Below, one piece after another: positions 8,570 to 63,435 of a stretch of DNA of 64,000 bases. Within the stretch, counting starts at the first letter, position 1. Every line of letters begins with the position of its first letter. The stretch is from a phage. Under the pieces are notes generated by a model. The model ran no database searches and had not been told where the DNA came from. It was given only the letters and a program-made list of their open reading frames with translations. The DNA is taken from sequence record PX393110.1, one strand, 5' to 3'. The translations under genes were made by a program, and so were the position numbers.

Positions 8570-8595
8570 GATTTGATGCGTTAAGTTGGCATTAG

Positions 8596-12153: not shown

Positions 12154-12345
12154 ATGTCTGAACAAAATAAAACCGACGCCCCAGTTAGCGAAAAGGTTCG
12201 CCTGTTCTCTATTGTGGATCATGACGTCGAGATCACCATTAAAGGTGGTCAAACTATCCTCGTTCCTCCGAAGGGCATCCTGAAAGATGTTCCTAAAGAG
12301 TGGCTGGAAGATGTCAAACTTCCCGCTGGCGTTAAGATGAAATAA
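12154..12345 (+). CDS. small hypothetical protein (63 aa)
   Basis: ATG at 12154 just after previous stop; the longer track ORF 12016..12345 overlaps the upstream gene. Confidence 0.4.
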   Translation: MSEQNKTDAPVSEKVRLFSIVDHDVEITIKGGQTILVPPKGILKDVPKEWLEDVKLPAGVKMK

Positions 12346-28951: not shown

Positions 28952-31936
28952 ATGTCTTATAATCCGATCTTAGAAGGATCAACCTGGCCGGAGACTATTC
29001 GTCGCTTAGAAAAGACGGATAGGGCGGAAGGTGGGCCACTAGTTACTAATTCTGAGGATGAACCAGTATCTGGACATATTAATCATCCAATAACTCAGTT
29101 AGCTACCAGAACTTCCATTTTAAAAAAGTATAATTTATCGATAATTAATAACACTAAAGAACAGTGGAAATTATTACTCGGTGACTTAGGACTAACTCTT
29201 GTTGGTACTTTTGAAGAAGGCGCTACTACTAACAGCAAGACTGATGCTGTTTGGCATATTGCTGGTGGTCAGTGTTACGTGTGGGGTGGTTTACTCCCTA
29301 AGACTGTATATGCTAACTCCACACCGCTAACTACTGGTGGTATCTCTGCTGATGCTTGGGTTAGTATTGGTGATGCCGCACTGCGAGGGCAAATATCAGA
29401 CCCGGACGGTGCGACAAAATACCCTGAATTGCAGATTGCTAGATGGCGTGACACTTTTGACCCTCGCGGTTGGGGAGCTAAAGGTGATGGATTAGTTGAT
29501 GATACTGTGGCTCTTAATAATCTGTTAAACGCTGCGCCAGTGGGTCAGAAAATTAATGGTAACGGTAGAACCTATAAAGTATCTGTGCTTCCAGATATTA
29601 GCCGATTCGTCAACACTCGTTTCGTTTATGAGCGTATTCCTGGCCAGACGCTTTATTATGTGTCTGACGAGTTTGTTCAGGGTGAGTTAATTAAAATAAC
29701 CGACACGCCTTATTACAATGCCTGGCCGCAGGATAAAGCGTTCGTTTACGACGATGTTATTTACTGTCCGTTCATGGCTAGCGATCGGCACGGGGTTAGC
29801 AGGCTGCATGTATCCTGGGTTCGCTCAGGTGATGACGGACAGACCTGGACGACCCCGGAGTGGCTAACCGACCTGCACCCTAATTACCCGACAGTTAACT
29901 ATCACTGTATGAGTATGGGTGTGATGCGCAACCGCCTATTTGCGATGATTGAAACCCGTACATTGGCATCTAACGCACTGGTGACTTGCGAGTTATGGGA
30001 TCGGCCCATGTCCCGTAACTACCATCCGACAGGTGGCATCACAAAAGCCGCCAACCAGCCTGTGGCTGTAATTACCATCCCTGAACACGGTCTTTTTGCT
30101 GGGGATTTTGTTAACTTCTCAAACTCTGGGGTGACTGGCGTTTCAGGGAATATGACTGTAACTTCAGTTATTGACCGCAACACGTTTACAGTTACCACGC
30201 CAAATCAACAAGCATTCGACCAAAATAACTCTACCAGCCGCTGGCATATGGGGACATCGTTCCATCAGTCACCATGGCGTAAAACCAGCCTTGGATTGAT
30301 CCCCATGGTTACCGAGGTTCACAGTTTTACCGCCATCAATAACGATTCATTCATGATGGGATATCACCAGGGTGATGTTGCTCCGCGTGAAGTCGGTATG
30401 TTGTATTTTCCGGATGCGTTCAACAATCCTGGGCTTTATCAGAAACGGCATATTCCTGCTGAATATGAGCCAGATGCGGCAGAACCCTGCGTTAAGTATT
30501 TTGACGGTGTTCTTTATGTTGTAACCCGTGGAACCAGGTCTGATCGTCTTGGTAGTTCTCTGCATCGCAGTAGCGACCTGGGGATTACCTGGCAATCACT
30601 GAGGTTTCCGAATAACGTCCACCACTCTACCCTGCCATTCGCTAAGGTAGGAAACGAACTGATTCTTTTCGGCACCGAACGCGCCGACAACGAGTGGGAA
30701 GCAAACGCACCGGATCAACGATATTTCAGTTCTTACCCACGGACGTTCTACACGAGAGTGAACCTCGACACCTGGAACCTGAATAATACTCAGTGGGTAA
30801 ATATCACTGATCAGATTTATCAGGGTGGTATTGTTAACTCTGGCGTCGGTGTCGGATCGGTCGTCGTGAAAGATAGTTATATCTATTACATGTTCGGTGG
30901 GGAAGACCATCTGAACCCATGGACATATGGAGATAACTTAGAGAAAGACCCATTCAAATCAGACGGTCATCCCTCAGATTTGTATTGTTACAAAATGCAG
31001 ATCGGTCCAGACAATCGTGTTTCTCGTGATTTCAGGTACGGTGCTGTACCTGACAGAGCGGTTCCAGTGTTTTTTGATACGAATGGAATTCGCACTGTTC
31101 CTGCGCCTATGGAGTTCACCGGTGATTTAGGGTTAGGTCATGTGACCATTAGAGCCAGCACCAGTAATAACGTTCGCTCTGAAGTTTTAATGGAAGGTGA
31201 GTATGGGTTTATTGGGAAATCTGTACCTACTAATAACCCAGCAGGACAGCGCACCATATTTTGCGGTGGCGAAGGAACCAGTTCTTCTACTGGTGCACAG
31301 ATTACGCTTTATGGTGCTAATAACACAGCTTCTCGCAGGATAGTTTACAACGGAGCTGAGCATCTGTTCCAGACTGCTGACGTTAAGCCTTATAACGATA
31401 ACGCGATTGCGCTCGGTGGGCCTAGCAACCGATTCACTACTGCATACCTCGGAAGCAACCCTATTGTTACTTCTAACGGGGAGAAGAAAACAGAGCCGGT
31501 ATTTTTTGACGATGCTTTTTTAGATGCTTGGGGCGACGTTCATTACATCATGTACCAGTGGTTGGATTCTGTACACTTGAAAGGAAATGACGCTAGAATT
31601 CATTTTGGCGTAATTGCTCAGCAGATCCGCGATGTATTCATTGCTCACGGTCTGATGGATGAGAATAGCACGGATTGCCGCTATGCCGTTCTGTGTTACG
31701 ACAAATATCCTCGCATGACAGACATGGTGTTCTCTCACAATGAAATCGTTGAACACACTGACGAGGAGGGTAATGTAACTACCACGGAAGAACCTGTATA
31801 CACCGAGGTGGTTATTCACGAAGAGGGTGAGGAGTGGGGTGTGCGGCCTGATGGAATTTTCTTTGCTGAGGCAGCATTCCAGAGAAGAAGACTGGAGAGA
31901 ATCGAAGCCAGACTTTCCGATCTTGAAAAGAAATAG
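28952..31936 (+). CDS. sialidase-like tailspike (endosialidase-like) with C-terminal intramolecular chaperone domain
   Basis: 994 aa; two Asp-box motifs (SGDDGQTW, SSDLGITW); GAKGDG motif; C-terminal S74-like chaperone region; distinct codon usage. Confidence 0.7.
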   Translation: MSYNPILEGSTWPETIRRLEKTDRAEGGPLVTNSEDEPVSGHINHPITQLATRTSILKKYNLSIINNTKEQWKLLLGDLGLTLVGTFEEGATTNSKTDAVWHIAGGQCYVWGGLLPKTVYANSTPLTTGGISADAWVSIGDAALRGQISDPDGATKYPELQIARWRDTFDPRGWGAKGDGLVDDTVALNNLLNAAPVGQKINGNGRTYKVSVLPDISRFVNTRFVYERIPGQTLYYVSDEFVQGELIKITDTPYYNAWPQDKAFVYDDVIYCPFMASDRHGVSRLHVSWVRSGDDGQTWTTPEWLTDLHPNYPTVNYHCMSMGVMRNRLFAMIETRTLASNALVTCELWDRPMSRNYHPTGGITKAANQPVAVITIPEHGLFAGDFVNFSNSGVTGVSGNMTVTSVIDRNTFTVTTPNQQAFDQNNSTSRWHMGTSFHQSPWRKTSLGLIPMVTEVHSFTAINNDSFMMGYHQGDVAPREVGMLYFPDAFNNPGLYQKRHIPAEYEPDAAEPCVKYFDGVLYVVTRGTRSDRLGSSLHRSSDLGITWQSLRFPNNVHHSTLPFAKVGNELILFGTERADNEWEANAPDQRYFSSYPRTFYTRVNLDTWNLNNTQWVNITDQIYQGGIVNSGVGVGSVVVKDSYIYYMFGGEDHLNPWTYGDNLEKDPFKSDGHPSDLYCYKMQIGPDNRVSRDFRYGAVPDRAVPVFFDTNGIRTVPAPMEFTGDLGLGHVTIRASTSNNVRSEVLMEGEYGFIGKSVPTNNPAGQRTIFCGGEGTSSSTGAQITLYGANNTASRRIVYNGAEHLFQTADVKPYNDNAIALGGPSNRFTTAYLGSNPIVTSNGEKKTEPVFFDDAFLDAWGDVHYIMYQWLDSVHLKGNDARIHFGVIAQQIRDVFIAHGLMDENSTDCRYAVLCYDKYPRMTDMVFSHNEIVEHTDEEGNVTTTEEPVYTEVVIHEEGEEWGVRPDGIFFAEAAFQRRRLERIEARLSDLEKK

Positions 31937-45944: not shown

Positions 45945-46647
45945 CTTCCACAGAGTTACCCTGCATAGCAATCATGGTATTCACCTCGTGCTCCAGATCC
46001 TGTAACTCTTTTACACGATTGATGGTGCGAACCCAAGTCTTAGCTTCCAGCATCGCATCGAACAATGCATGGTGATCAGACATAGACTCGTGCTGGCTAC
46101 TCAGTTCTTCTTTAATCATGCGACGATCATCGAATGAGATCAGCTGCAGACTAGCCAGAGTGCGGTAATCTCGATTCATCCAGTGTAGGAACGGGGTCTT
46201 ACGTCCTTTAGCCTTAAAGTACCAATCCAGGAATCCCTGGTCGAACTCTGGTGCGTTACCGATGAAGTTCAACATCTGGCAACCAGGATCCTGTAGTACC
46301 TTAGCTACGTACTCTTCGATGATATCCAGAGCTTCGTCAACAGATACTGGATTAGCATATGCAGCATCACGGACGGGTTTCGGGAGAGTGTTGAGCCATT
46401 CAACTACGTTAGGGTCAGACTTCATACCCAGAGCCAGCGACTCTTCTCGATCAATAGTGAAGTAGACGTGGGAGTAGTGATCAGGACCAACCGTCACCAT
46501 ACCTACAGATAGAACTACCCCAGGCTCTTTAAAATCGAGATACTCGGTCTCGATGTCAATTGCGCAGTGGTAGGAGTCGTGATATGACAGGAATCGGTTA
46601 AACAGTTTATTCGGAGCCAGATGGTGTGGCATCATCTTAGTAGACAT
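45934..46647 (-). CDS. 3'-5' exonuclease, DEDDh (DnaQ/RNase T-like)
   Basis: AIDIETE (Exo I), FDQGFL (Exo II), HHALFDA (Exo III) motifs. Confidence 0.7.
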   Translation of the reverse strand: MSTKMMPHHLAPNKLFNRFLSYHDSYHCAIDIETEYLDFKEPGVVLSVGMVTVGPDHYSHVYFTIDREESLALGMKSDPNVVEWLNTLPKPVRDAAYANPVSVDEALDIIEEYVAKVLQDPGCQMLNFIGNAPEFDQGFLDWYFKAKGRKTPFLHWMNRDYRTLASLQLISFDDRRMIKEELSSQHESMSDHHALFDAMLEAKTWVRTINRVKELQDLEHEVNTMIAMQGNSVEDGE

Positions 46648-49663: not shown

Positions 49664-50192
49664 TAATAGTGTTCCTCAACATAATCAAATAATAACTCCT
49701 AAACTAATGGACGTAGGAACTACCGGCCCCTTATCTAATTTAACCAATTGGAGTGTAGCGGCGGCTGGCAGAGCCGCCGCGTACACGAGACTAAGCTCCT
49801 CCGGAGACTCTGACCTTGCCCACCCGAGCCTCCCCCTGGGATTCGCTCCCTAAAGCCACTTTGGGCTTTAACTCGCTCACCCTACGCGTGACGCAAGGTA
49901 TACTACGTAGATGCCCCTAAGAATGTTGAGAGGGTATAAACCTTAGTGTAGTTCGCATCAGTCCCCACTAAGGTCTCGACAATACCTTCATCCTCTATCC
50001 AGTTCCGGACAATCTGAATAGGGACACTACCTAACTATTCGTAATGCAACCATAGCCGGAGACGTAACTTAATCGTGCCCTATGTATACGCATTACTTAA
50101 TGAGAGTATATAGCTGCTCTTCCCAGACTATCGAATCTGTTTTACGGAAGAGCAACTATTAGGCCGTTAGGTGCCTTAATAGAACTCAGCTA
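49664..50192. other. ~530-bp non-coding region with multiple strong hairpins (candidate structured RNA or replication/regulatory element)
   Basis: no ORF above 60 aa on either strand; 9-bp GC stem GCGGCGGCT/AGCCGCCGC at 49759-49781; 11-bp stem at 50113-50158; nested inverted repeat at 50041-50096. Confidence 0.4.
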
Positions 50193-50715: not shown

Positions 50716-50740
50716 ATCTTAATATCTCCTAATATCTCCT
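50714..50740 (-). repeat. tandem 10-bp direct repeat forming duplicated Shine-Dalgarno
   Basis: AATATCTCCT x2 on plus, i.e. AGGAGATATT AGGAGATATT in sense orientation. Confidence 0.8.
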
Positions 50741-50752
50741 AAGACTATTCAC

Positions 50753-50776
50753 ATAGAGCACCATCAGATGCTCTAT
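50753..50776 (-). promoter_or_regulatory. conserved intergenic stem-loop (ACATAGRGCACC family)
   Basis: 7-bp stem ATAGAGC/GCTCTAT with 10-nt loop. Confidence 0.45.
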
Positions 50777-50793
50777 AGGAATAACCTCTACAG

Positions 50794-50825
50794 TTTAACA
50801 GCCTTTTGACCGTACAAAAGAGCGG
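50794..50825 (-). promoter_or_regulatory. conserved promoter-like motif
   Basis: TTTAACAGCCTTTTGACCGTACAAAAGAGCGG. Confidence 0.5.
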
Positions 50826-50827
50826 TT

Positions 50828-51061
50828 TTATTTAGTATACTTATTTCTGGCTAAGTCTACCCCAAGGGAAGTAAGCATACACATGTTACGGTCATCATAA
50901 ATCTTAGGGCAGAGATTATTACCCTTAAACCAGGCAGCTAATCCTTTATCTACCAAGCCAGATGCTCCAGATTTAGATGGTAGGTCTCCGTCTGCTGCTG
51001 GTCCGAACCAGAATAATTTGTACAGAACATCTTCTTCTGCACCATTTAACTCTTTATCCAT
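50828..51061 (-). CDS. hypothetical protein
   Basis: 77 aa ORF. Confidence 0.45.
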   Translation of the reverse strand: MDKELNGAEEDVLYKLFWFGPAADGDLPSKSGASGLVDKGLAAWFKGNNLCPKIYDDRNMCMLTSLGVDLARNKYTK

Positions 51062-51071
51062 TTTAAGCTCC

Positions 51072-51383
51072 TTAATACTCTTTATCTATCGTTATGTTGA
51101 TATGGATAAGCTCAGGATCTACCAGCTTAATTATGTTCACGGAGCCTAGTTCCCAGTTAGATAAACGTAGGGAATTACGGCATCTTGCAGCTAAACCGAA
51201 CAGATTTAGCTCATCCAGACGGTCATAACTAAGCAAAGTAGCCTTATCTTTATCTAAAGTCCAGTCTTCTTCATTAACAGGACCTAAAATGCAGTAGGCA
51301 GTTCTCCAGTTAACGTCCCCCTCCGGAGGGCGTTCCCCGATATCTGCGCTCCATATCTTTAATTCAATGCGGAACTGTTCCAT
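51072..51383 (-). CDS. hypothetical protein
   Basis: 103 aa ORF. Confidence 0.45.
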   Translation of the reverse strand: MEQFRIELKIWSADIGERPPEGDVNWRTAYCILGPVNEEDWTLDKDKATLLSYDRLDELNLFGLAARCRNSLRLSNWELGSVNIIKLVDPELIHINITIDKEY

Positions 51384-51610
51384 TATCTGTCCTTAGGAGG
51401 AGCAGCAACCTCCCCAGTTGGTGTGGTATTCTCTGGGTGACCAACAGACTTAGTTTCCTTATACTTAACAGAACTAAGATTGAATACCAATAGCCCAGGT
51501 ATAGCCGACCACCATGATGCTCCCATATAATAAAGGCCCAATACTAGAACAGTCATGCAGATAAGGGTTACAATATTTTCGAGTATACCCATCATCATTA
51601 TTTTATTCAC
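51383..51610 (-). CDS. small membrane protein
   Basis: 75 aa; two hydrophobic segments. Confidence 0.45.
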   Translation of the reverse strand: MNKIMMMGILENIVTLICMTVLVLGLYYMGASWWSAIPGLLVFNLSSVKYKETKSVGHPENTTPTGEVAAPPKDR

Positions 51611-52161
51611 TGAGGCATGTCTCCTATGCTACCAACATAATCGGTCCCATATCCAGGCTCGGTTGCTGGTTTAATGGACCCTACCATACCCTTATTGTCG
51701 ATGGTGACAGTGTGTGGGGCAGGGACATATTTAGCGGACCATCCATGCCAATCCATGAATGCGCAGTAGTTAGCCACGTCGACAGGATCACCCTTATCGA
51801 TATGGTGGCTAAATGCGATGATGCACTGGGTAGGGTCTTCGAACTGATCATTACCCTTAGCCGTATCCCAGTTAGGATGACGCCATCCGTTGGTGAATCC
51901 ATACTTAACCTGGGCTTTATGTAACTTCTTAGCCATCTTCCCAGCGAAGTCCAGAACCAACTCACGAGTATCAGGATGCAGACCATCAGGAATAGCGACG
52001 CAGTTATTCGTGATAGACATCTTCACGTGATTGAGGATGTCTGCTACTTCTTTACGGCTCATGGTGAACTCCATAGCATTGAGATCACCACTTAATTTAC
52101 TGCGGAAGAGATTGTTGATTAAGTCCAGAGTCTCTTCCACTACATTACGATTACTACTCAT
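51607..52161 (-). CDS. hypothetical protein
   Basis: ATG at 52159-52161 with AAGGAAG RBS; avoids overlap with upstream gene. Confidence 0.45.
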   Translation of the reverse strand: MSSNRNVVEETLDLINNLFRSKLSGDLNAMEFTMSRKEVADILNHVKMSITNNCVAIPDGLHPDTRELVLDFAGKMAKKLHKAQVKYGFTNGWRHPNWDTAKGNDQFEDPTQCIIAFSHHIDKGDPVDVANYCAFMDWHGWSAKYVPAPHTVTIDNKGMVGSIKPATEPGYGTDYVGSIGDMPQ

Positions 52162-52171
52162 AGATACTTCC

Positions 52172-52741
52172 TTATTTCTTATTGCAATGAGGACATACCA
52201 TATGCTCAATACCGAGCTCGCCATGGTCTATCACTGCTTGACCAGCACCACCGCAGCGGTTGCATCCGATCTCTTCAATTACCTCATCTCTCTGAATCTG
52301 TAACTTAACTGCGGATAAGAGATCGAATAGTACCTCTTCGTTTACTGAGCAACTCATTACCGCGAAGTTAGATGCCATACCAGCATCGATGGGAGTAAAC
52401 GATAAATCTGAGAAGGAGAACTCCTCATCGTTACCATAGCCACGGAAGTCTCTCATGACTACCTTAACATCCGGACGAGATTCTAGTAGTTTGTAATCTT
52501 CTGCAGTAATTACGGCATTTACTTCCCAGCTACGCCAAGACCATGTTGCCTGATAAAACTGAGGAGCGGGTCTGGTATGTGGATGGTCCGGCTCTACGTA
52601 TTGATCCACTACCTTAGCCAGATGTGTACGGAGCTGCTGAGTCTGGCCATAAGTCATTACGGCATCCATCAACTCTTTCAGCATTCTATTGTACAGATGA
52701 GGAGCTAACCTAAGTTTACTGTTCATCATCAACTCCTGCAA
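52172..52741 (-). CDS. hypothetical protein with C-terminal zinc ribbon
   Basis: 189 aa; CNRCGG ... CPHC. Confidence 0.45.
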   Translation of the reverse strand: MQELMMNSKLRLAPHLYNRMLKELMDAVMTYGQTQQLRTHLAKVVDQYVEPDHPHTRPAPQFYQATWSWRSWEVNAVITAEDYKLLESRPDVKVVMRDFRGYGNDEEFSFSDLSFTPIDAGMASNFAVMSCSVNEEVLFDLLSAVKLQIQRDEVIEEIGCNRCGGAGQAVIDHGELGIEHMVCPHCNKK

Positions 52742-52904
52742 TTATAGATACATTATTATAACCAGCATCGAAGGTAACATCGATATCACCTTCAATGTTC
52801 TCTACATCTTTCAGCTTGGCGATCAGCTTAGAGATAGGACCACTCCAGTCGTCTAACTCTTCTAAAATTCGTTTAGCCTCGTCAGATATATCTAACGTAT
52901 GCAT
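52716..52904 (-). CDS. small acidic hypothetical protein
   Basis: 62 aa; AGGAG RBS. Confidence 0.4.
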   Translation of the reverse strand: MHTLDISDEAKRILEELDDWSGPISKLIAKLKDVENIEGDIDVTFDAGYNNVSIIAGVDDEQ

Positions 52905-52931
52905 TTGATTACTCCTAACGTTAACATTTCA

Positions 52932-52957
52932 CATAGGGCACCGAAATACCCTATAGG
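52932..52957 (-). promoter_or_regulatory. conserved intergenic stem-loop (ACATAGRGCACC family)
   Basis: 6-bp stem ATAGGG/CCCTAT with 10-nt loop. Confidence 0.4.
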
Positions 52958-52962
52958 CTATG

Positions 52963-53178
52963 CTAACCGTACAGTGTTCCTGGTCTAGGTTCCACCATGG
53001 TTGTTGCGTCTACATTCTCGAATATAACATCGTCATTAGCCACGGAACATGTAGCGGTGTGTTCGTCCATAACCAGGCTACCACGTACCATACAGACCAT
53101 CTCTCCGTTATATTCAAAATGCATACCAGTAGTCATATGAATCGGAATCTTATCTACCATAACGGATGAATCTCCCAT
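52963..53178 (-). CDS. hypothetical protein
   Basis: 71 aa ORF. Confidence 0.4.
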   Translation of the reverse strand: MGDSSVMVDKIPIHMTTGMHFEYNGEMVCMVRGSLVMDEHTATCSVANDDVIFENVDATTMVEPRPGTLYG

Positions 53179-53259
53179 CCCATAGCTACACAGAATGAGC
53201 AGAAGAGCAATCCCAGGAAGAATCCGATCACTATAAGAAATCCAGCGCCGTCCAGCATA

Positions 53260-53550
53260 TTAGTCATCCAGTCTGATTACATTACCAGCTAACCATCCTC
53301 CGCATACTGCTCCTGTTACTTTGGTGCCAGTAGGACTAGTTGCTGAAAATTTAGTGGAGAACATACCATTCTTGGAGCACTTAAACCAGGATCTCCCATG
53401 TATCGTTACATTGGTGAATCCACTGTTATTTAGGGTTTTAGTTGCTCCAGATTCGTCGTAACACCTGCTTAAAATGAAGATGCTTAAAATGAAGATTATA
53501 ACGATCACCATAATTACCGGTAGAAACCCACCAATAGCTGATAATTTCAT
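53260..53550 (-). CDS. membrane-anchored/secreted hypothetical protein
   Basis: ATG at 53548-53550 with GGGAG RBS; N-terminal hydrophobic helix. Confidence 0.45.
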   Translation of the reverse strand: MKLSAIGGFLPVIMVIVIIFILSIFILSRCYDESGATKTLNNSGFTNVTIHGRSWFKCSKNGMFSTKFSATSPTGTKVTGAVCGGWLAGNVIRLDD

Positions 53551-53551
53551 A

Positions 53552-53839
53552 TTACTCCCAGCAGTGATATTCGGCGAAATCGCAGATCTGGAAGAATGGA
53601 CCATGACGAATCCATGGTTTATCCGGAAGGGTTTCCCATAGATGGTGACACCATTTCGCGAACCTCTTAGCGGACTCCAGATCAGTAACCTTATCAGTGC
53701 GAATATCGAATCCGGTCCGCTTAGCTACTGTATCCCAGTCAGTCCACCCCTTCCATACCTCGTTAATGTAAGGCATGATTCGTCCAGATTCGATCAATTT
53801 TTGAGCTTCAGATACGATGTTCTCATCTAAGATCTGCAT
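53552..53839 (-). CDS. hypothetical protein
   Basis: 95 aa ORF. Confidence 0.45.
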   Translation of the reverse strand: MQILDENIVSEAQKLIESGRIMPYINEVWKGWTDWDTVAKRTGFDIRTDKVTDLESAKRFAKWCHHLWETLPDKPWIRHGPFFQICDFAEYHCWE

Positions 53840-54029
53840 CGTTACTCCTTAATATGTTTCCATGTTGCTGATTCAATATCGTAGTCGTCTAGGCATGGGT
53901 TATCCAGTCTCATACCTCCACATTCTCCGAACTCCACATCTACAAAGTCCTTAATATCGGAATCGGATGCTGTGTCTGGTACTTCGACGACTACGGTTAC
54001 TTCTATAAGTTTGCGGTCCACAGTAGCTC

Positions 54030-54248
54030 CTACTTATTCGGAGTAATGATGCATGGTGCCGCAGCAGTGATCACTACTGGATTACCACTACTGTCCCAGA
54101 TGGTGGTTGCCGCAGTCTCGATTACATAGCGTTGAGCATTAGGCTCACTATACAGAGACCGACCATCCGGACCGAAGCATTCGATATTTACTGATGCGCT
54201 AGCCATTCCGCTTGTTGCAAGAAGAGCAACTACAAGAATCTTTTTCAT
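54030..54248 (-). CDS. small secreted protein
   Basis: N-terminal signal peptide MKKILVVALLATSGMASA. Confidence 0.45.
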   Translation of the reverse strand: MKKILVVALLATSGMASASVNIECFGPDGRSLYSEPNAQRYVIETAATTIWDSSGNPVVITAAAPCIITPNK

Positions 54249-54408
54249 CGTTAGTTCCTTTCGTTTTACGTAAATCGTTACACTTACCCAGCAAAGTCTT
54301 AACGGAATTAAGATCTGAGTTTAGCTTAGATAAGCGATCTTTTAATAAAGCCAATCTGAACAGGAGTATCATAACTACCCCTATCAATACTCCTATCGTT
54401 ATAGCCAT
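54199..54408 (-). CDS. small membrane protein
   Basis: 69 aa; N-terminal TM helix; overlaps downstream gene by about 50 nt. Confidence 0.35.
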   Translation of the reverse strand: MAITIGVLIGVVMILLFRLALLKDRLSKLNSDLNSVKTLLGKCNDLRKTKGTNDEKDSCSCSSCNKRNG

Positions 54409-54410
54409 GG

Positions 54411-54743
54411 TTACCCCAGTTCGATGAATATCCTCTCGTTGCGGTAGTTAGAGGACATAGAGTAGCTTACCTTAAATCCTAGAGCATGGTACAGATTAGA
54501 CAGCACCGTAGTGTTGGTAGTCTTGCCATCCTTATTCAGGAGTGCTCGGTCTCCCTTAAATGCTTCGTCCAGCTGGGTAAGATGTACATCCGCACTGAAG
54601 TGAGTGATCAGCATCTTATTGATAGCGTCGAAACCATCGTTCCAGTGTTCGTCCAGGAACTTCAGGGCATTCTCTTTATCTACCTGCTGCTTATGTTCAC
54701 GAGCCAGACGTACGTGTTCTGCAGTTGCAATAATGTTGCTCAT
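54411..54743 (-). CDS. hypothetical protein
   Basis: ATG at 54741-54743 with AGGAG RBS. Confidence 0.45.
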   Translation of the reverse strand: MSNIIATAEHVRLAREHKQQVDKENALKFLDEHWNDGFDAINKMLITHFSADVHLTQLDEAFKGDRALLNKDGKTTNTTVLSNLYHALGFKVSYSMSSNYRNERIFIELG

Positions 54744-54804
54744 AATATCTCCTAAGATTAACAGCAATATTAATAGATGGCACTCGTAAGTACCATCGAT
54801 AATA

Positions 54805-55050
54805 CTACTCAGAGAAACTAACGCCTAACCTCTCCAGCTCTAGTCGCTTATCATCAATACGGCGAGATAACTCGGCAAGAACTGCTGGACGTATTGCATC
54901 AATGAAGGCATCGTCCTGGTACTGAGACTGGATAGTGATACCCAACGCCACATGACCAGTACTTTCTTCGATGATATTGTACTGCCTTTCCAGTTCTTTA
55001 AGAGCCTGCATACCGTAGTGAATCTTATCTACATCGGCTGCCTTAACCAT
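54805..55050 (-). CDS. hypothetical protein
   Basis: 81 aa ORF. Confidence 0.45.
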   Translation of the reverse strand: MVKAADVDKIHYGMQALKELERQYNIIEESTGHVALGITIQSQYQDDAFIDAIRPAVLAELSRRIDDKRLELERLGVSFSE

Positions 55051-55051
55051 A

Positions 55052-55249
55052 TTACCCTATTTTAGTAAATCGCCCATCCTCCATCTCGGAGGCGCGTCGG
55101 ACCCATTTCTTAAAGTCCTTACCACGATAGACATAGGCACGCTCATTAGTTTCTTCCAGATATACTTCATCATCCAGAATATGATAATGATTACCAGACT
55201 TCTCGTGTAGGACTTTATCCCCAGGATTAAACATGCTCATTATGTGCAA
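55052..55249 (-). CDS. hypothetical protein
   Basis: 65 aa ORF. Confidence 0.4.
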   Translation of the reverse strand: MHIMSMFNPGDKVLHEKSGNHYHILDDEVYLEETNERAYVYRGKDFKKWVRRASEMEDGRFTKIG

Positions 55250-55425
55250 TGTGCTCCCACTTCACGAATAATGACATCCTGCTGTTCCGGAGTCATGGGA
55301 TTAGCAATAGCGCTAGCCATCTCTCCGAAGTTACCGATTAACTCATGGCCTACCTGCATCTGGGTAAGTAGCTCTGATAACTTAACATAGTCATCAGTCT
55401 TTACTCTGATCTGCACAAACTTCAT
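55240..55425 (-). CDS. hypothetical protein
   Basis: 61 aa ORF. Confidence 0.4.
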   Translation of the reverse strand: MKFVQIRVKTDDYVKLSELLTQMQVGHELIGNFGEMASAIANPMTPEQQDVIIREVGAHCT

Positions 55426-55679
55426 TTACGGAGATCCGTGTAGACATAGTTCTGATGCTCGGTACGAGTTACCAGACCCAGCTTACCTTTACTGGTGACT
55501 GCGTACTGAACACCATCTTCGTTGATCAGTTTGTAGTTATCAGCACGTACCCTCTCGCCACGTTTATCTTCAGGCTCAAGAATAGTTGCTTCTATGGTGT
55601 TATTGGGATGAATGATGGCTTTCTCCACCACCATATCCACATGTACCGATACACCTAATCGGCCACCAAGAGAAGGCAT
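55422..55679 (-). CDS. hypothetical protein
   Basis: 85 aa ORF; start may be internal ATG. Confidence 0.4.
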   Translation of the reverse strand: MPSLGGRLGVSVHVDMVVEKAIIHPNNTIEATILEPEDKRGERVRADNYKLINEDGVQYAVTSKGKLGLVTRTEHQNYVYTDLRK

Positions 55680-55842
55680 GTAATTTAACTCCCATCTTTT
55701 GGTATTTCTTGCGGATCTTCTGAACTACGCGATCCTGGTTACGTCTGGTATTCTTACGCATACCATTAATAGCTTCTTCCATCTCACGATGCATAGCGCT
55801 ACGCATCTTATCGTTAAGAGTCAATTCCTGACGTTCTCCCAT
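55600..55842 (-). CDS. hypothetical basic protein, first gene after promoter motif
   Basis: 80 aa; AGAGGAGG RBS; 3' end overlaps next ORF so true extent is uncertain. Confidence 0.4.
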   Translation of the reverse strand: MGERQELTLNDKMRSAMHREMEEAINGMRKNTRRNQDRVVQKIRKKYQKMGVKLHAFSWWPIRCIGTCGYGGGESHHSSQ

Positions 55843-55862
55843 GTGTCCTCCTCTTTGAACAC

Positions 55863-55894
55863 TTTAACAGCCTTTGGAACCCTATAAAGAGCGG
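55863..55894 (-). promoter_or_regulatory. conserved promoter-like motif
   Basis: TTTAACAGCCTTTGGAACCCTATAAAGAGCGG. Confidence 0.5.
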
Positions 55895-55896
55895 TT

Positions 55897-56526
55897 TTAT
55901 TTAGGGATCCATGAATACTTTAAATTCCATGGCCTAGGGGTACCATGGAAACAAACTACTGCAACCCCATTAGGCACCGACCCGTTTCCGGTAGACCTGT
56001 GACAGTAATGCTCCTGGTCAGGACCTACTACTGATACCTTGTAGGAACAGAATTTACCTGGGTAGAGATCTTGTATGCGAGGTACTCCATTAAAGAATGG
56101 GCAGATAAACTCCTGATCACCACCTACAGAGTGATTAGCCATGAATCTATCTGGACTAACTATCCAAGCATTCCAGATGCGCTCAGCTAAGATAGGCTCA
56201 ACACGCATCACGCTACTGTTAACCATCCCAGTATGGTACCAGTCTCGGAGAATAGTTGATTCGTCACAGTTCAGCAGGAATGTGATATCGTCGATAATTG
56301 CTGTATCTAAATCGAAGAACACGAATGGCTCCTGGATAGTGAATAGCTCCATCTTACTCCACCAGCCAGGATAATCATGCTTCATAGGTATCCACTCAAC
56401 TCCTTCGATAGGCTCTTTAGAGATACATGCATATCTTGTACCTTCTGGGAGTTGTCTACCTACCCATTTAACGTGATCTTCTGTGAAGTCCTTACCCTTA
56501 CGAAATACCGTAACCACTAGCGACAT
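55897..56526 (-). CDS. putative glycosyltransferase (DxD-containing)
   Basis: 209 aa; FDLDTAIIDD possible DxD motif; in glycosyltransferase cluster. Confidence 0.4.
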   Translation of the reverse strand: MSLVVTVFRKGKDFTEDHVKWVGRQLPEGTRYACISKEPIEGVEWIPMKHDYPGWWSKMELFTIQEPFVFFDLDTAIIDDITFLLNCDESTILRDWYHTGMVNSSVMRVEPILAERIWNAWIVSPDRFMANHSVGGDQEFICPFFNGVPRIQDLYPGKFCSYKVSVVGPDQEHYCHRSTGNGSVPNGVAVVCFHGTPRPWNLKYSWIPK

Positions 56527-57485
56527 TTAGTCTTCTCCATATGTTTAAATCCCTGGATCATGTTCTTAGCCACGTTATCCCAGGTACAATCTTTAACCTT
56601 ATCAGCAATCTTGGTTCTGTTAAGCTTAAGGAGTATTTCGTCCCAGTTTATCTTAGAGCCAACTATGTGATGCTCCACAGATTCCAGACGATCTTTAGGA
56701 ATAAGCCCTTCCTTAGTTACTATCAGAGCTCCGCACCGAGCCGCTTCCAGGACAGTAAGGCCTAACGACTCCTTATGAGTAACTATGAAGATGTCGCAGC
56801 ATCTGATTAATGCAGCGAACTCCTGACTGCTTACTCCTCCACGACGATACTCCTCAACACTTATATTCTCCTCGTCGATAACGCATAATCCATTATCGGT
56901 AAGAGTGTAAGATACGTGAGGAACCGGAATATGCTTAAGGTTCATCATCATGGTTAGGGAGTAATCGAAGTCCGACAGGTCAAATAGCGGATGGTCTACG
57001 AATATCCTAAGTACACCATCCGACATCTTCTCTGGGTAGAATAGCTTATCATCAGCTGCCCACCCTACCTGCCAGTTATTATCCAGATGCCTTTTCAGAC
57101 GACTCGGATTGTCTAAGTACTTATAGGTATCGTCCCGAAGAGTGAAAGTTACGTCTACCTGTTTACAGTCTAGCATCGAACCATCATAGATATGGGTAAC
57201 TAATCCCTTAAAGTGCTTCTTAAGGTATTCTCCTATTTCTAGAGGAATCTGAGTAAACGGACGTACTCCCACATATAAGATATGATCGCACTTCTCTTCC
57301 CGAGCTATTTCTAATACTTGATCAGCATAGACATGAGGATTAACCGAATCGTGGTACTCTGGCCATAATACTAACTCTACTCCATTAGCCTCCAGAGCGC
57401 CTCGGAGATGATATTTCCACATGGTACTGAAGTTAGTTATCTGATGTGAACTACCAGGACAATTTGCTATATACAGTAACTTCAT
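56517..57485 (-). CDS. GT-B fold glycosyltransferase (GT4-like)
   Basis: 322 aa; ESLGLTVLEAARCGALIV matches the E-x7-E motif. Confidence 0.65.
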   Translation of the reverse strand: MKLLYIANCPGSSHQITNFSTMWKYHLRGALEANGVELVLWPEYHDSVNPHVYADQVLEIAREEKCDHILYVGVRPFTQIPLEIGEYLKKHFKGLVTHIYDGSMLDCKQVDVTFTLRDDTYKYLDNPSRLKRHLDNNWQVGWAADDKLFYPEKMSDGVLRIFVDHPLFDLSDFDYSLTMMMNLKHIPVPHVSYTLTDNGLCVIDEENISVEEYRRGGVSSQEFAALIRCCDIFIVTHKESLGLTVLEAARCGALIVTKEGLIPKDRLESVEHHIVGSKINWDEILLKLNRTKIADKVKDCTWDNVAKNMIQGFKHMEKTKCR

Positions 57486-58086
57486 TCACCCATTCCTCAA
57501 CAGTAGTTTTACGAGTCCCACCAATCCCTGATAGCGACTGTATATTTATCTTTTCTGTAGCCGACTTAATTAAAATAGGAAGATGGCTAAGGTTATTTGG
57601 TACCCCACCAGATACTCTTGGTTCTGGGCTACCATCTACCCCAACCAACAAGAGATCAGTGTGACCCATATGATAAGCTAATCCGATCGCCCCATAAGCG
57701 CTATTCCCGGAACTGATTACATCAGGATCCTCAGATAACCCAGGAACTGCTCGCCATCTCCACAGCCACCATAGAGGAGTACCATAGATAGGCTCCTCCC
57801 CACGATGTTCGTCCCGCTTAAGTAAGTGTGCTTTATAACCAGAATATAGATGCATATCTGCTTCGTCCACAGCAAGGTAATAACGAGTACCCATCCTAGG
57901 ATTCTGGATACGGCATAGATTAGCTTGGCTAGGATCCAGAGTAAAGAAGTAATTAGCTCTGGGTAACCACTCTATGGCACCATTAACCGCAAATATCGGT
58001 ATCTCATGTGGAGGAGTGAATCCTCTTGCCGATGGTCCATCTGCTACAATTATGGCAGGTCTTCTATACTTAGCCTCTCGAAGCAT
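57451..58086 (-). CDS. CstII/Maf-like (GT42/DUF115 superfamily) putative glycosyltransferase
   Basis: ADGPSA ... SSGNSAYGAIGLAYHMG ... LLVGVDGS layout; paralog of next gene. Confidence 0.45.
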   Translation of the reverse strand: MLREAKYRRPAIIVADGPSARGFTPPHEIPIFAVNGAIEWLPRANYFFTLDPSQANLCRIQNPRMGTRYYLAVDEADMHLYSGYKAHLLKRDEHRGEEPIYGTPLWWLWRWRAVPGLSEDPDVISSGNSAYGAIGLAYHMGHTDLLLVGVDGSPEPRVSGGVPNNLSHLPILIKSATEKINIQSLSGIGGTRKTTVEEWVNEVTVYSKLSW

Positions 58087-58586
58087 GTTATTTTAGTCCT
58101 TCTGGTACAATTGATTATAGTAATACTATCTGGAAGGTATCTCTGGACCAAGTAATAGTCCTCAATCCATTTAGCAACTGTTTCAAGATCTGGATTAGTT
58201 AACCCACCAGTATGATCTCCATGGAAATGGCTACCATCTGAAATATCACAGTCATAGCCGAGAAGTACTATCTCTTTAGGAGCAAATACGCTGGCCAAGA
58301 AGATAGCTTGAGCGCCCGAGCTATAACAACTATTCAAGTAGAAGAACTGTTTTACATCTGGGTGATTCTCTACAGGAAGATGGCTGTACTTAGAGCATGT
58401 GCTTGGGACATTATTATAATTATGCTCCCACCAGATAGGATCGAATCCATAAACTATATTGGGAGGTCTGGATGAGAACATGGCGTTATTAGCGCTAATA
58501 ACCAAGTCGGACTTACTAGCAAGTAGTAAATAATCCTCCTCGGTTAGAGAAGGACCGCTAGCTACACACATTATTCTCTTTATCAT
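58050..58586 (-). CDS. CstII/Maf-like (GT42/DUF115 superfamily) putative glycosyltransferase
   Basis: ASGPSLTEEDY ... YSSGAQAIFLASVF ... LLGYDCD layout resembles CstII-type sialyltransferase. Confidence 0.5.
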   Translation of the reverse strand: MIKRIMCVASGPSLTEEDYLLLASKSDLVISANNAMFSSRPPNIVYGFDPIWWEHNYNNVPSTCSKYSHLPVENHPDVKQFFYLNSCYSSGAQAIFLASVFAPKEIVLLGYDCDISDGSHFHGDHTGGLTNPDLETVAKWIEDYYLVQRYLPDSITIINCTRRTKITCFERLSIEDLP

Positions 58587-59290
58587 AAGTACTGTCTAAC
58601 CTCTGGGCTAAGGACCGTATCCATAATAGCTGAAGTGCATTCCCCATCAACCCAGTCACCAAGTACTTCAGTAAGTGCTGAGTTAATTGCGGTAGTCATG
58701 TACTCTTTAAGGAGTAATGCCTCTTCGTTAATGTAGTCGGTTACGTCCTTAACGAAAGTAGCTACCGACTCAAAAGCACCATCCAGAGTATCCTTAAGTT
58801 CCTGAGCCTTAACCAGAAGATCTTCGGTATCGTCCAGGCCCAGGAACTCCTCAATGCTGTTAGCTGCTTCCCCAACGGCCTCTGTGACTGTATTCAGTGC
58901 TCGTTGGCCAATACCACCCACGATACCCATCACAGAGTTAAATGGGGTACATGCCGTAGCTACACCGAATTTATCCATGGCTGCTGCATAGTTCTTGGCT
59001 ATGTTAATTCTGGAGTACATGTTCTGTACAGATTCATCACCGTAGGCAACTAGCGTAGAGATGCTGGATAAGTTACCCTCCATAGCTATCTGGGCTGCGT
59101 TGATATAGGCTGGATCTATACCGGCCTTATTAAGAGCTTCTGCCTTAAGTGCCGAAGGATTCTGTAGCTGGCTTAATCCGCTAACTACAGACTGGGTTTT
59201 CTCACCAGCTACAGCGCCTACATCGCTGAGTGGGTTAATAGTACCACGGCCAGCTTGCAGAACCTGGAATACTTTATTCTTATCAACCAT
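58583..59290 (-). CDS. hypothetical protein
   Basis: 235 aa; GGAG RBS; immediately downstream of terminator. Confidence 0.5.
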   Translation of the reverse strand: MVDKNKVFQVLQAGRGTINPLSDVGAVAGEKTQSVVSGLSQLQNPSALKAEALNKAGIDPAYINAAQIAMEGNLSSISTLVAYGDESVQNMYSRINIAKNYAAAMDKFGVATACTPFNSVMGIVGGIGQRALNTVTEAVGEAANSIEEFLGLDDTEDLLVKAQELKDTLDGAFESVATFVKDVTDYINEEALLLKEYMTTAINSALTEVLGDWVDGECTSAIMDTVLSPEVRQYL

Positions 59291-59305
59291 CGTTAAACTC
59301 CATAC

Positions 59306-59333
59306 GTAAAAATAAGGGAGACCGAAGTCTCCC
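59306..59333 (-). terminator. rho-independent terminator
   Basis: 7-bp stem GGGAGAC/GTCTCCC with CGAA loop; minus-sense U-tract TTATTTTTA. Confidence 0.7.
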
Positions 59334-59382
59334 TATGATTATTTTATTCTAGTAGATTACATGTACCAGTATCTAATAAGCA

Positions 59383-59649
59383 TTATCTTTGTTCATCGTA
59401 CTTCTCCAATGTATAGTTACCGCTGCTGCTGGGGTAGAGGTGAATAACTCCTTCAGGAAATCCCCTGTGACCTCTTAATTCGTCTTCGGTCTGAGGAGCT
59501 TTAACGCAGTCTTTAGGGCTAACCCTATATAGCTGGCATAACCTGTGGAATGATATATGATGCATATCACCATCGGCACTTAACACAGGACCTGGGTGAA
59601 CTACATATTTAACCATTATTTTATCCTCAATGATACCGACATAGGACAC
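59383..59649 (-). CDS. hypothetical protein
   Basis: 88 aa ORF. Confidence 0.45.
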   Translation of the reverse strand: MSYVGIIEDKIMVKYVVHPGPVLSADGDMHHISFHRLCQLYRVSPKDCVKAPQTEDELRGHRGFPEGVIHLYPSSSGNYTLEKYDEQR

Positions 59650-59664
59650 CCGAAGATGTCCTAT
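59641..59664 (-). promoter_or_regulatory. conserved intergenic stem-loop (ACATAGRGCACC family)
   Basis: 8-bp stem ATAGGACA/TGTCCTAT with 8-nt loop. Confidence 0.4.
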
Positions 59665-59670
59665 AGCTTA

Positions 59671-59925
59671 TCACTGGTTCAGAACTGCCACGATCTTTTC
59701 TGCCACCTGCTCCAGAGTATCGTCGCTATCATAGTCGAAGTCTGGAATACTGTCTTCCATACCCAGTTCATCTTCAACACGCATGATGATCTCCACTTCA
59801 TCCAGAGAATCTGCACCTAACTGCTCACCGGTAGTAGTTTCAGTTACTTCCAGAATATCAACCATCATGATGTCAGCTACTGCAGATCGCAGTGCATCTT
59901 TAACCTGTTCCAAAGTTACAGACAT
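59671..59925 (-). CDS. acyl carrier protein homolog
   Basis: 84 aa acidic; LGADSLDEVEIIMRVEDELG matches ACP phosphopantetheine-attachment motif; start shares one nt with ligase stop. Confidence 0.75.
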   Translation of the reverse strand: MSVTLEQVKDALRSAVADIMMVDILEVTETTTGEQLGADSLDEVEIIMRVEDELGMEDSIPDFDYDSDDTLEQVAEKIVAVLNQ

Positions 59926-63406: not shown

Positions 63407-63435
63407 ACCCAAAAGAACGGGCTTTAAACCCGTTC
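63407..63435 (-). terminator. rho-independent terminator
   Basis: 7-bp stem GAACGGG/CCCGTTC; minus-sense U-tract; adjacent GAGCCGCC direct repeat. Confidence 0.6.

Follow-up and report, generated by a model that had tools for sequence, protein, structure and literature searches.

A 64,000-nucleotide stretch of phage DNA (sequence record PX393110.1; "the window" below means this whole stretch) carries three hairpins in the gaps between genes of its minus strand. We conclude that these hairpins are probably processing and stabilizing signals for host ribonuclease III (RNase III), of the type known from phage T7, located in polycistronic minus-strand mRNA. Each hairpin (sites 1 to 3) is the upper half of a longer, strand-specific RNA helix that covaries among phages, lies at or close to the ribosome-binding site of the next gene and, at sites 2 and 3, includes the stop codon of the preceding one. 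A statistical model built solely from T7 RNase III sites ranks these helices, together with one more (site 4), above everything else in the window. In the best-supported reading, the window has four such predicted signals in total, three of them of a CUAUAG flavor. Most likely, the hairpins are ordinary mRNA processing signals and represent no new kind of element.

Three hairpins in a minus-strand gene block

The window is 92-96% identical to Escherichia phages EP_H11 (L003; 111 kb) and vB_EcoM_IME392 (IME392; 116 kb). Its plus strand carries structural genes up to ~41970, and its minus strand, from ~42025 to 64000, is a dense run of small early genes and DNA-metabolism genes. The phage group encodes homologs of the beta and beta' subunits of RNA polymerase, and it has been assigned to phages with probably hypermodified thymidine (PMC12686479; bioRxiv 10.1101/2025.03.26.645540).

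A sequence-only reading of this DNA had described three hairpins that share an ACATAG(R)GCACC arm in minus-strand intergenic regions. All three are present where they had been placed, in gaps and on the coding strand, and we confirm that they are real. Because they lie in intergenic gaps of a minus-strand gene block, the relevant molecule is the minus-strand transcript. In this RNA, the hairpins are CUAUAGAGCAUC-UGAU-GGUGCUCUAUG at site 1, CUAUAGGGUAU-UUCG-GUGCCCUAUG at site 2 and CUAUAGGACAUC-UUCG-GGUGUCCUAUG at site 3. The stem and loop sizes given earlier hold for the antisense (plus) strand, which has 8-bp stems and loops of 6-8 nucleotides. They do not hold for the sense-strand RNA, in which G·U pairs lengthen the stems to 10-11 bp and leave tetraloops. 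Several of these G·U pairs exist solely on the sense strand and are mismatches on the other. Folds of the sense strand have energies of -13 to -20 kcal/mol (z-scores of -2.3 to -5.7), and the plus strand is weaker at every site.

As a bare DNA pattern, CTATAGN{14,26}CTATG is mildly enriched in the window, with three matches against 0.85 expected, and 6 of 100 shuffled sequences also reach three. A covariance model of the window elements (R1) was run on the window, EP_H11, IME392 and L013, the last being a near-complete contig that is ~95% identical to the window. This model finds exactly three sites in each of the four genomes, with E-values of about 1e-14, and no other match on that strand at E≤10. 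A census of intergenic hairpins returned many UAG...CUA/UUCG hairpins and no additional family members. A genome-wide sliding-window scan of minimum free energy (MFE) for further long hairpins was uninformative, since 638 windows, most of them coding, reached -20 kcal/mol or lower.

A bipartite helix next to ribosome-binding sites

MFE folds that include the flanking sequence show, for all variants, that the hairpins at sites 1 to 3 are the upper halves of bipartite helices of ~22 steps (21-23; Table 1). Each helix has a lower stem of 8-10 bp at its base. Above this come small internal loops, then a clamp pair and a C×U mismatch, and finally the upper stem, which a U·G pair closes. The clamp pair covaries across sites, being C-G at sites 1 and 2 and G-C at site 3. 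The lower stems have no sequence in common between sites and are nevertheless paired, and they outperform shuffled flanks (14, 40, 77 and 84 of 2000 shuffles were equally good).

These helices are consistently placed with respect to the reading frames around them. At site 2, the upstream stop codon UAG (52965-52963) lies within the lower stem, as does the upstream UGA (59673-59671), followed by UAA, at site 3. On the other side, the 3' strand of the lower stem ends at, or at most 3 nucleotides from, the Shine-Dalgarno sequence of the next gene at all three sites. At site 2, 3 nucleotides separate the 8-bp lower stem from the Shine-Dalgarno sequence, or none if a CGU extension pairs.

The sequence-only reading had also placed one hairpin between a promoter motif and a duplicated Shine-Dalgarno sequence. 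This arrangement is found at site 1, where the motif occupies 50827-50789 and the duplication 50740-50721. The duplicated segment, AGGAGATATT, is an exact 10-nucleotide tandem repeat (50740-50731 and 50730-50721, minus strand) that carries the Shine-Dalgarno sequence of the downstream 119-aa gene. It is doubled in the window, EP_H11 and IME392 and is a single copy in L013, which is ~95% identical to the window, so the duplication is recent. The site 1 helix starts 6 nucleotides after GCTGTTAA, and the same 6-nucleotide spacing occurs in the related contig L011 with a different sequence. The promoter-like element is context for site 1 and is not a member of the hairpin family. The position of a transcription start at this motif is putative.

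Covariation in related sequences

Sites 1 to 3 are identical in EP_H11 and IME392, and these two genomes are therefore uninformative on selection. Remoter relatives (contigs such as L011, L012 and L013) were gathered by protein look-ups; scans of IMG/VR and JGI metagenomes with the ligase protein, which is at most 33% identical to that of any phage outside the group, found no relatives. The site 1 orthologs of L011 and L012, which precede a gene of 66-69% identity, retain the upper stem and have another loop; their lower stem has been swapped for unrelated sequence that is nevertheless paired. At site 3 of L013, an A-to-G change converts an A-U pair to G·U.

Among these 6 distinct sequences, 90% of cells are paired and 10 pairs show double changes, and none of 500 shuffles is as good. 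Among 12 distinct sequences, 93% of cells are paired. When 58 distinct sequences are aligned to R1, 94.4% of cells are paired and 14 of the 19 pairs covary, with 201 compensated cells; here too, none of 500 shuffles is as good, and controls in which the pairing was slid reach at most 49%. In the 58 sequences, the five base pairs of UAUAG/CUAUG are invariant or nearly so, the closing U·G pair of the upper stem never changes, and the lower stem is free to vary. Because the invariant U·G pair and the G·U pair of L013 are valid only in sense-strand RNA, and because the pairs covary, the structure is one of RNA and is strand-specific. Conservation and covariation in related phages, which the sequence-only reading had itself proposed as a check, thus proved positive.

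Resemblance to RNase III sites of phage T7

For comparison, ten T7 RNase III sites were folded at the coordinates attributed to Dunn and Studier (1983). Seven canonical sites (R0.3, R0.5, R1, R1.1, R1.3, R4.7 and R18.5) show the same blueprint in their folds as do the window helices; R3.8, R6.5 and R13 fold differently and were excluded from the model. In the canonical sites, the known T7 cut falls on the 3' side of the internal loop.

A covariance model made only from these seven T7 sites (R2) was searched with filters off against both strands of the whole window (128 kb in all). Its four best matches are the three sites described above and a further hairpin, termed site 4, which was absent from the earlier list (Table 1). 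Every remaining match in the window has E>3. In the reciprocal search, R1 matches T7 R0.3 with an E-value of 0.02 and also matches T7 R1 in its upper stem. Site 4 has the upstream stop codon UAG (54807-54805) in its lower stem, and its UC×UAU internal loop is T7's own. The upper stem of site 4 covaries in the relatives EP_H11 (46085-46146), L009 (6315-6377) and L013 (near 6539).

The window sites and the T7 signals are alike in being intercistronic and on the sense strand. Both have an upper stem of 9-11 bp with a loop of 4-5 nucleotides and an A-U pair followed by a U·G pair near its top. Below it, a pyrimidine-pyrimidine mismatch and a C-G clamp accompany a small internal loop, and the lower stem of 5-10 bp brings the total to about two helical turns. 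Some likenesses extend to the sequence. The AGGGUAU/GUGCCCU of T7 R0.3 recurs in the upper stem of site 2, and AGGUCAUC..GGUGGCCU of T7 R1 resembles site 3. The 5' strand of the T7 R0.5 lower stem has tandem stop codons (UGAUAG), as does site 3 (UGAUAA), and the next ribosome-binding site lies just downstream in both. However, the upper stem of the window sites has a UAUAG/CUAUG base closed by U·G, whereas that of T7 has AAGG/CCUU, and on the 3' side of the loop the window sites read U-G-AA and those of T7 UAU-G-A. The carriers also differ, since this phage is a ~112-kb myophage whose RNA polymerase is multisubunit and whose thymidine is probably hypermodified, and T7-like phages are podophages. 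Finally, cleavage has been demonstrated for the T7 sites and is predicted for those of the window.

Two other observations concern T7-type sites elsewhere. R2 identifies strong, intergenic candidates for T7-type, RNase III-like sites in SP6 (L020) at 12219-12279, 30546-30612 and 8523-8591 (48, 43 and 21 bits), which are unannotated in the record. In EP_H11, a possible RNase III-like site beyond the window, at 7151-7212, ACAUAGCCAUCU-UACG-AGGUGGCUAGAU, has a long AU-rich lower stem and is a weak R2 match (E 0.6).

The window hairpins also recall the intercistronic C(UUCG)G hairpins of T4, reportedly described by Tuerk and colleagues in 1988 and thought to stabilize messages. In both cases, very stable UUCG tetraloops lie between genes of a large virulent coliphage. 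However, the T4 hairpins are short single stems and are not known to have a conserved base, a bipartite two-turn helix or a resemblance to RNase III sites.

Agreement with known requirements of RNase III

Substrates of E. coli RNase III span about two helical turns (PMC1540722), which agrees with the 21-23 steps of sites 1 to 3. A minimal substrate has at least 11 bp between cut and tetraloop (PMC1540722). At the window sites, whose cut position is a prediction, 11-12 steps (10-11 by another count) separate the C×U mismatch and the tetraloop, or 9-10 in an alternative register; T7 R0.3 has 10. Owing to internal loops, only one strand is cut and a protective hairpin persists at the 3' end (PMC1540722); all three sites have the conserved C×U mismatch, and sites 2 and 3 have a 2×2 or 1×2 loop in addition. 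G-C pairs at positions 2 and 4 of the proximal box inhibit cleavage, and R1.1 has U·C at position 4 (PMC1540722), to which the C×U mismatch of the window sites is similar. In all 58 sequences and in either register, these two positions are A-U, U-A or C×U. The distal box requires a U·G pair (PMC1540722). An A-U pair followed by U·G, a combination also seen in T7 R1.1, R0.3 and R1, is found in all three window sites, one step loopward of the register anchored on the mismatch, and U·G falls exactly in that register, itself ambiguous, in site 2 and in 49 of the 58 family members.

Cut zones were predicted from the alignment of R2 to the T7 sites, the T7 cut positions and the proximal- and distal-box rules (PMC1540722). 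Because two registers lie 2 nucleotides apart, the cut is predicted only as a zone, CUAUGU^GA^A.

Several points weigh against the assignment of these helices to RNase III. The register of the proximal and distal boxes is ambiguous by 2 nucleotides, and sites 1 and 3 fit the T7 distal box in one register, most podophage copies of the motif (described below) in the other. Site 2 is marginal under the T7-only model (E 0.86), and an SP6 copy of the motif at 2362-2418 is not recovered by that model at E≤1. The coordinates of the T7 sites have as their backing here only the folds and one report in which two of them, R0.5 and R1.1, are named as functional RNase III sites (PMC3643576). Moreover, the five invariant pairs, the C×U mismatch and the near-invariant clamp (56 C-G and 2 G-C) are kept across the 58 sequences. 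This invariance is greater than RNase III is known to require, so the hairpins might have another sequence-specific partner.

The same motif in unrelated podophages

A sensitive blastn search with site 2 produces matches in gaps between genes of SP6, Bonnellvirus and many KP34-like (Drulisvirus) phages. The motif AGCCUAUAG-N14-CUAUGUGAA, together with a lower stem, is common to these SP6-, Bonnellvirus- and KP34-like podophages, and site 2 matches it exactly. The podophage copies have the same architecture with lower stems of their own. R1 recovers 60 of these copies with E-values of 3e-7 to 1e-3. An exact-pattern scan of IMG/VR produced 53 stretches with 1-3 copies each, nearly all on contigs of ~40-48 kb (three are shorter). 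All copies in annotated genomes are in sense orientation.

In KP34-like phages, the motif corresponds to AGCCTATAGCGTCCTACGGGGCGCTATGTGAA, which has been listed as a "putative phage promoter," nick sites being mentioned as another possibility (PMC4411677). This element shares with the window sites the UAUAG/CUAUG arms, C×U mismatch, C-G clamp, AG×AA loop, tetraloop and a lower stem of 7-8 bp. The KP34-type motif is also found between SP6 genes 5 and 6 and in Bonnellvirus, where it likewise resides in early-region gaps in sense orientation, with 1-3 copies per genome. Site 2 fits the KP34-type consensus fully, whereas the flank departs from it at site 1, where two pairs replace the AG×AA loop, and at site 3, where the clamp is G-C and the loop A×GG. 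The window sites also differ from the KP34-type motif in the middle of the upper stem, and the carrier phages are unrelated. The presence of one motif in unrelated enterobacterial podophages (SP6, Bonnellvirus and Drulisvirus) points to a host factor, and a search of the phage with a crude regular expression detected no RNase III signature motif.

Other searches with the motif returned little. The narrow DNA pattern CTATAGRRYAT..GTGYYCTATGT matched one chance, non-folding sequence in three contigs of IMG/VR and the metagenomes. Rfam gave no match at the gathering threshold in the window and none at E≤1 in the L012, SP6, Putnam and J8-65 loci. Literature searches for RNase III sites in SP6 and K1-5 returned nothing usable.

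Proposed mechanism

From these comparisons we infer RNase III as the enzyme, the cut positions and the consequences for mRNA stability and translation. The transcript would fold into a coaxial helix of ~22 steps, with its lower stem, C×U mismatch, clamp and tetraloop-capped upper stem. RNase III of the E. coli host, an endonuclease that is specific for double-stranded RNA and needs about two turns, would bind the helix and cut its 3' strand within the internal-loop zone. The upstream message would retain the stop codon in its lower stem, and the very stable hairpin at its 3' end would stop 3' exonucleases. The downstream message would begin 8-12 nucleotides before its Shine-Dalgarno sequence, free of upstream structure. 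At site 1, where the helix lies ~6 nucleotides past the promoter-like motif, it may double as a 5'-terminal stabilizer.

Alternative explanations

The sequence-only reading had favored RNA processing sites, attenuators or protein-binding operators over terminators. Its processing interpretation is supported by the lack of a U-tract, the strand-specific RNA structure, the covariation and the match to T7 RNase III sites, and its exclusion of terminators stands; an attenuator or a dedicated operator receives no specific support. As had been noted, no canonical U-tract follows any of the three sites, whose tails are GUGAAUAG, GUGAAAUG and GUCGGUAU. Intrinsic termination was rejected on this basis, and a terminator scan that calls hairpins at 59315-59334 and 63415-63435 passes over all three sites. 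Like rho-independent terminators, the window sites have a GC-containing stem-loop after a stop codon, and this phage's own terminators also use UUCG loops, one of them beginning with AUAGGG. They differ in lacking a U-tract, in having a lower stem and, at sites 2 and 3, in that the next gene follows without a new promoter motif.

Apart from cleavage, the hairpins might serve as uncleaved insulators or stabilizers: UUCG-capped barriers to exonucleases or RNase E, 5'-terminal hairpins, or cleavage-resistant sites bound by RNase III, any of which could keep the adjacent Shine-Dalgarno sequence free of long-range pairing. Tetraloop hairpins are very stable, the site 1 helix is only 6 nucleotides past a promoter-like motif in both the window and L011, the helices end at or near the Shine-Dalgarno sequence, and RNase III does bind certain helices without cutting them (PMC1540722). 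We nevertheless regard this role as unlikely, since a simple barrier leaves unexplained the total length fixed at ~22 steps, the internal-loop layout shared with T7 and the R2 matches, and has no need for the invariant UAUAG/CUAUG, the C×U mismatch or the near-invariant C-G clamp. The CUAUAG/CUAUGUGAA module may be an RNA cassette in its own right, transferred among unrelated enterobacterial phages (SP6-, Bonnellvirus- and KP34-like phages and this myophage) or arisen in them convergently. The excess invariance could reflect an extra host or phage factor, or a mode of "bind, cut once, then protect" that has not been described for T7 sites; we consider this rather unlikely. An operator for a sequence-specific RNA-binding protein of phage or host other than RNase III, which would control the three downstream genes jointly through their translation or decay, is a more doubtful proposal. 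Five invariant pairs, a C×U mismatch and a near-invariant clamp beside freely covarying positions do form the pattern of a protein-recognized hairpin, and the sites adjoin ribosome-binding sites. However, the motif is common to phage families without an evident common regulator, the proteins downstream of sites 1 to 3 are mutually unrelated and have no assigned function, the Shine-Dalgarno sequence is outside the structure, and the lower stem and two-turn length would have no role.

Two further explanations were considered. Because the phage group encodes beta and beta' homologs, hairpins without U-tracts could in principle act as pause, attenuation or termination signals for its own non-canonical multisubunit RNA polymerase, and the terminator-type hairpin at 59315-59334, also found in L009, has a similar AUAGGG 5' arm along with a U-tract. 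This function is highly improbable, since podophages with single-subunit polymerases carry the identical motif, termination needs no lower stem of 8-10 bp with an upstream stop codon, and genes resume directly downstream with Shine-Dalgarno sequences of their own, at sites 2 and 3 without a promoter motif. Least probable is an element that works as DNA, either a phage-specific promoter or a palindrome for nicking or protein binding. The published annotation of AGCCTATAGCGTCCTACGGGGCGCTATGTGAA favors such an element, and CTATAG resembles the core of T7 and SP6 promoters. Yet tblastn searches with the T7 and SP6 RNA polymerases against the window, EP_H11 and IME392 detect no such polymerase (best E 1.7), and the promoter interpretation fails in this phage because its group has no T7-like RNA polymerase. 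The invariant U·G and other G·U pairs are mismatches on the other strand, the plus strand folds worse, the lower stems covary without sequence conservation and are not needed by a promoter, and the sense orientation of the annotated copies is uniform. The experimentally validated KP34 promoters, four per genome, disagree with the KP34 and phiKMV standards of one prediction tool (PMC11880802); the motif is not confirmed as one of them. A narrower candidate, the trailing TATG/CTATAG as a promoter for a phage polymerase, was dropped in view of the strand-specific G·U pairs, the covarying lower stems and the occurrence of the motif in phages with different polymerases. Processing by host RNase III thus remains the reading that we favor.

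Feature coordinates and neighboring elements

Table 1. Features of the candidate processing sites and their surroundings in the window. Scores give, where available, the lower-stem shuffles that were equally good, the E-value under the window model (R1), and the score, E-value and rank under the T7-only model (R2).
Feature	Position	Strand	Sequence or structure	Scores
Site 1, full helix	50741..50788	minus	lower stem GAGGUUAUUC/GAAUAGUCUU, 10 bp; C×U; upper stem UAUAGAGCAUC/GGUGCUCUAUG, 11 bp; loop UGAU	40/2000; R1 E 7e-14; R2 25.2 bits, E 0.003, rank 3
Site 1, upper hairpin	50752-50778	minus		
Site 1, predicted RNase III cut zone	50748..50751	minus	CUAUG-U^G-A^A, 3' side; two R1.1 alignments 2 nucleotides apart	
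Shine-Dalgarno region, 119-aa gene downstream of site 1	50716..50740	minus	first AGGAGATATT copy begins directly after lower stem	
Promoter-like "first element" upstream of site 1	50789..50827	minus	AACCGCTCTTTTGTACGGTCAAAAGGCTGTTAAACTGTA, containing TGTTAAACT (extended -10-like)	
Site 2, full helix	52920..52967	minus	lower stem GUUAGCAU/AUGUUAAC, 8 bp; AG×AA loop; C-G clamp; C×U; upper stem UAUAGGGUAU/GUGCCCUAUG, 10 bp; loop UUCG	14/2000; R1 E 8e-15; R2 15 bits, E 0.86, rank 4
Site 2, upper hairpin	52932-52956	minus		
Site 2, predicted RNase III cut zone	52928..52931	minus	U^GA^A	
Shine-Dalgarno sequence, 62-aa gene downstream of site 2	52912..52916	minus	AGGAG; AUG at 52904	
Site 3, full helix	59628..59676	minus	lower stem CAGUGAUA/UAUCAUUG, 8 bp; A×GG loop; G-C clamp; C×U; upper stem UAUAGGACAUC/GGUGUCCUAUG, 11 bp; loop UUCG	77/2000; R1 E 6e-14; R2 39.9 bits, E 7e-7, rank 1
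Site 3, upper hairpin	59640-59666	minus		
Site 3, predicted RNase III cut zone	59636..59639	minus	U^CG^G	
Shine-Dalgarno sequence, 77-aa gene downstream of site 3	59624..59628	minus	GAGGA; AUG at 59616; overlaps last lower-stem base	
Site 4, helix (R2 match 54754-54814)	54763..54809	minus	lower stem AGUAGUAUUA/UAAUAUUGCU; internal loop UC×UAU; upper stem GAUGGUACU/AGUGCCAUC; loop UACG	R2 33.3 bits, E 3e-5, rank 2
"First element" copies	~61932-61895, 55896-55860, 50827-50789, 49429-49397, 46711-46675, 45620-45590	minus	CCGCTCTTT-N8-10-AAAGGCTGTTAAAnTGT	

The "first element," a copy of which precedes site 1, consists of an imperfect hairpin followed by TGnTAAAnT (extended -10-like) and is found upstream of many minus-strand genes. 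It is conserved as far as the relative L010, whose ligase is 43% identical, and is probably either the main promoter of middle genes or a regulatory signal.

A third repeated intergenic motif, GTTCTTTTGGGTGGGGCGG, occurs in the window at 63435-63390 (minus strand), in EP_H11 at 2274, 25017, 28855 and 36542, and at the start of L009. A terminator-like hairpin, GAACGGGTTTAAAGCCCGTTC, often lies before it and a TATAAT-like hexamer after it. The motif may represent an early promoter/terminator unit. At 59315-59334 (minus strand), a true terminator-type hairpin, AGGGAGAC-UUCG-GUCUCCCU, is followed by UAUUUUU. Its 5' flank is AUAGGG, or CCUAUAGGG in the L009 counterpart (4391-4441), and its 5' arm resembles those of the processing hairpins. 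Many intergenic hairpins of EP_H11 begin UAG...CUA and have UUCG loops.

A non-coding stretch of ~530 nucleotides at 49664-50192 (minus strand) is partly G+C-rich and has many predicted helices. Syntenic gaps are present in EP_H11 (50832-51362) and L011 (1103-1613). The stretch contains no convincing open reading frame and no tRNA, and it has no Rfam match at E≤1; it could be a structured RNA of a new type.

Pfam and PHROG searches of six small proteins that flank the sites detected no common function. The 84-aa protein encoded directly upstream of site 3 (59671-59925, minus strand) matches the phosphopantetheine-binding/acyl carrier protein family (Pfam PF00550, E 1.5e-8). Its gene lies beside that of an NAD-dependent DNA ligase, and such an acyl-carrier-like neighbor is unusual for a phage.

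Implications

RNase III sites of this kind already serve as mRNA insulators in synthetic constructs (PMC3643576). If the predicted cleavage occurs, a compact and sequence-diverse family of RNase III sites would become available. The same 32-nucleotide motif is recorded as a putative promoter in KP34-like Klebsiella phages. Since it shows strong RNA covariation and is present in a phage that lacks such a polymerase, these annotations should be revisited. For the lineage studied here, which is barely annotated and in which nearly all genes are termed "hypothetical," the sites add probable marks of post-transcriptional cutting that indicate the likely points at which long early messages are split into stable units.

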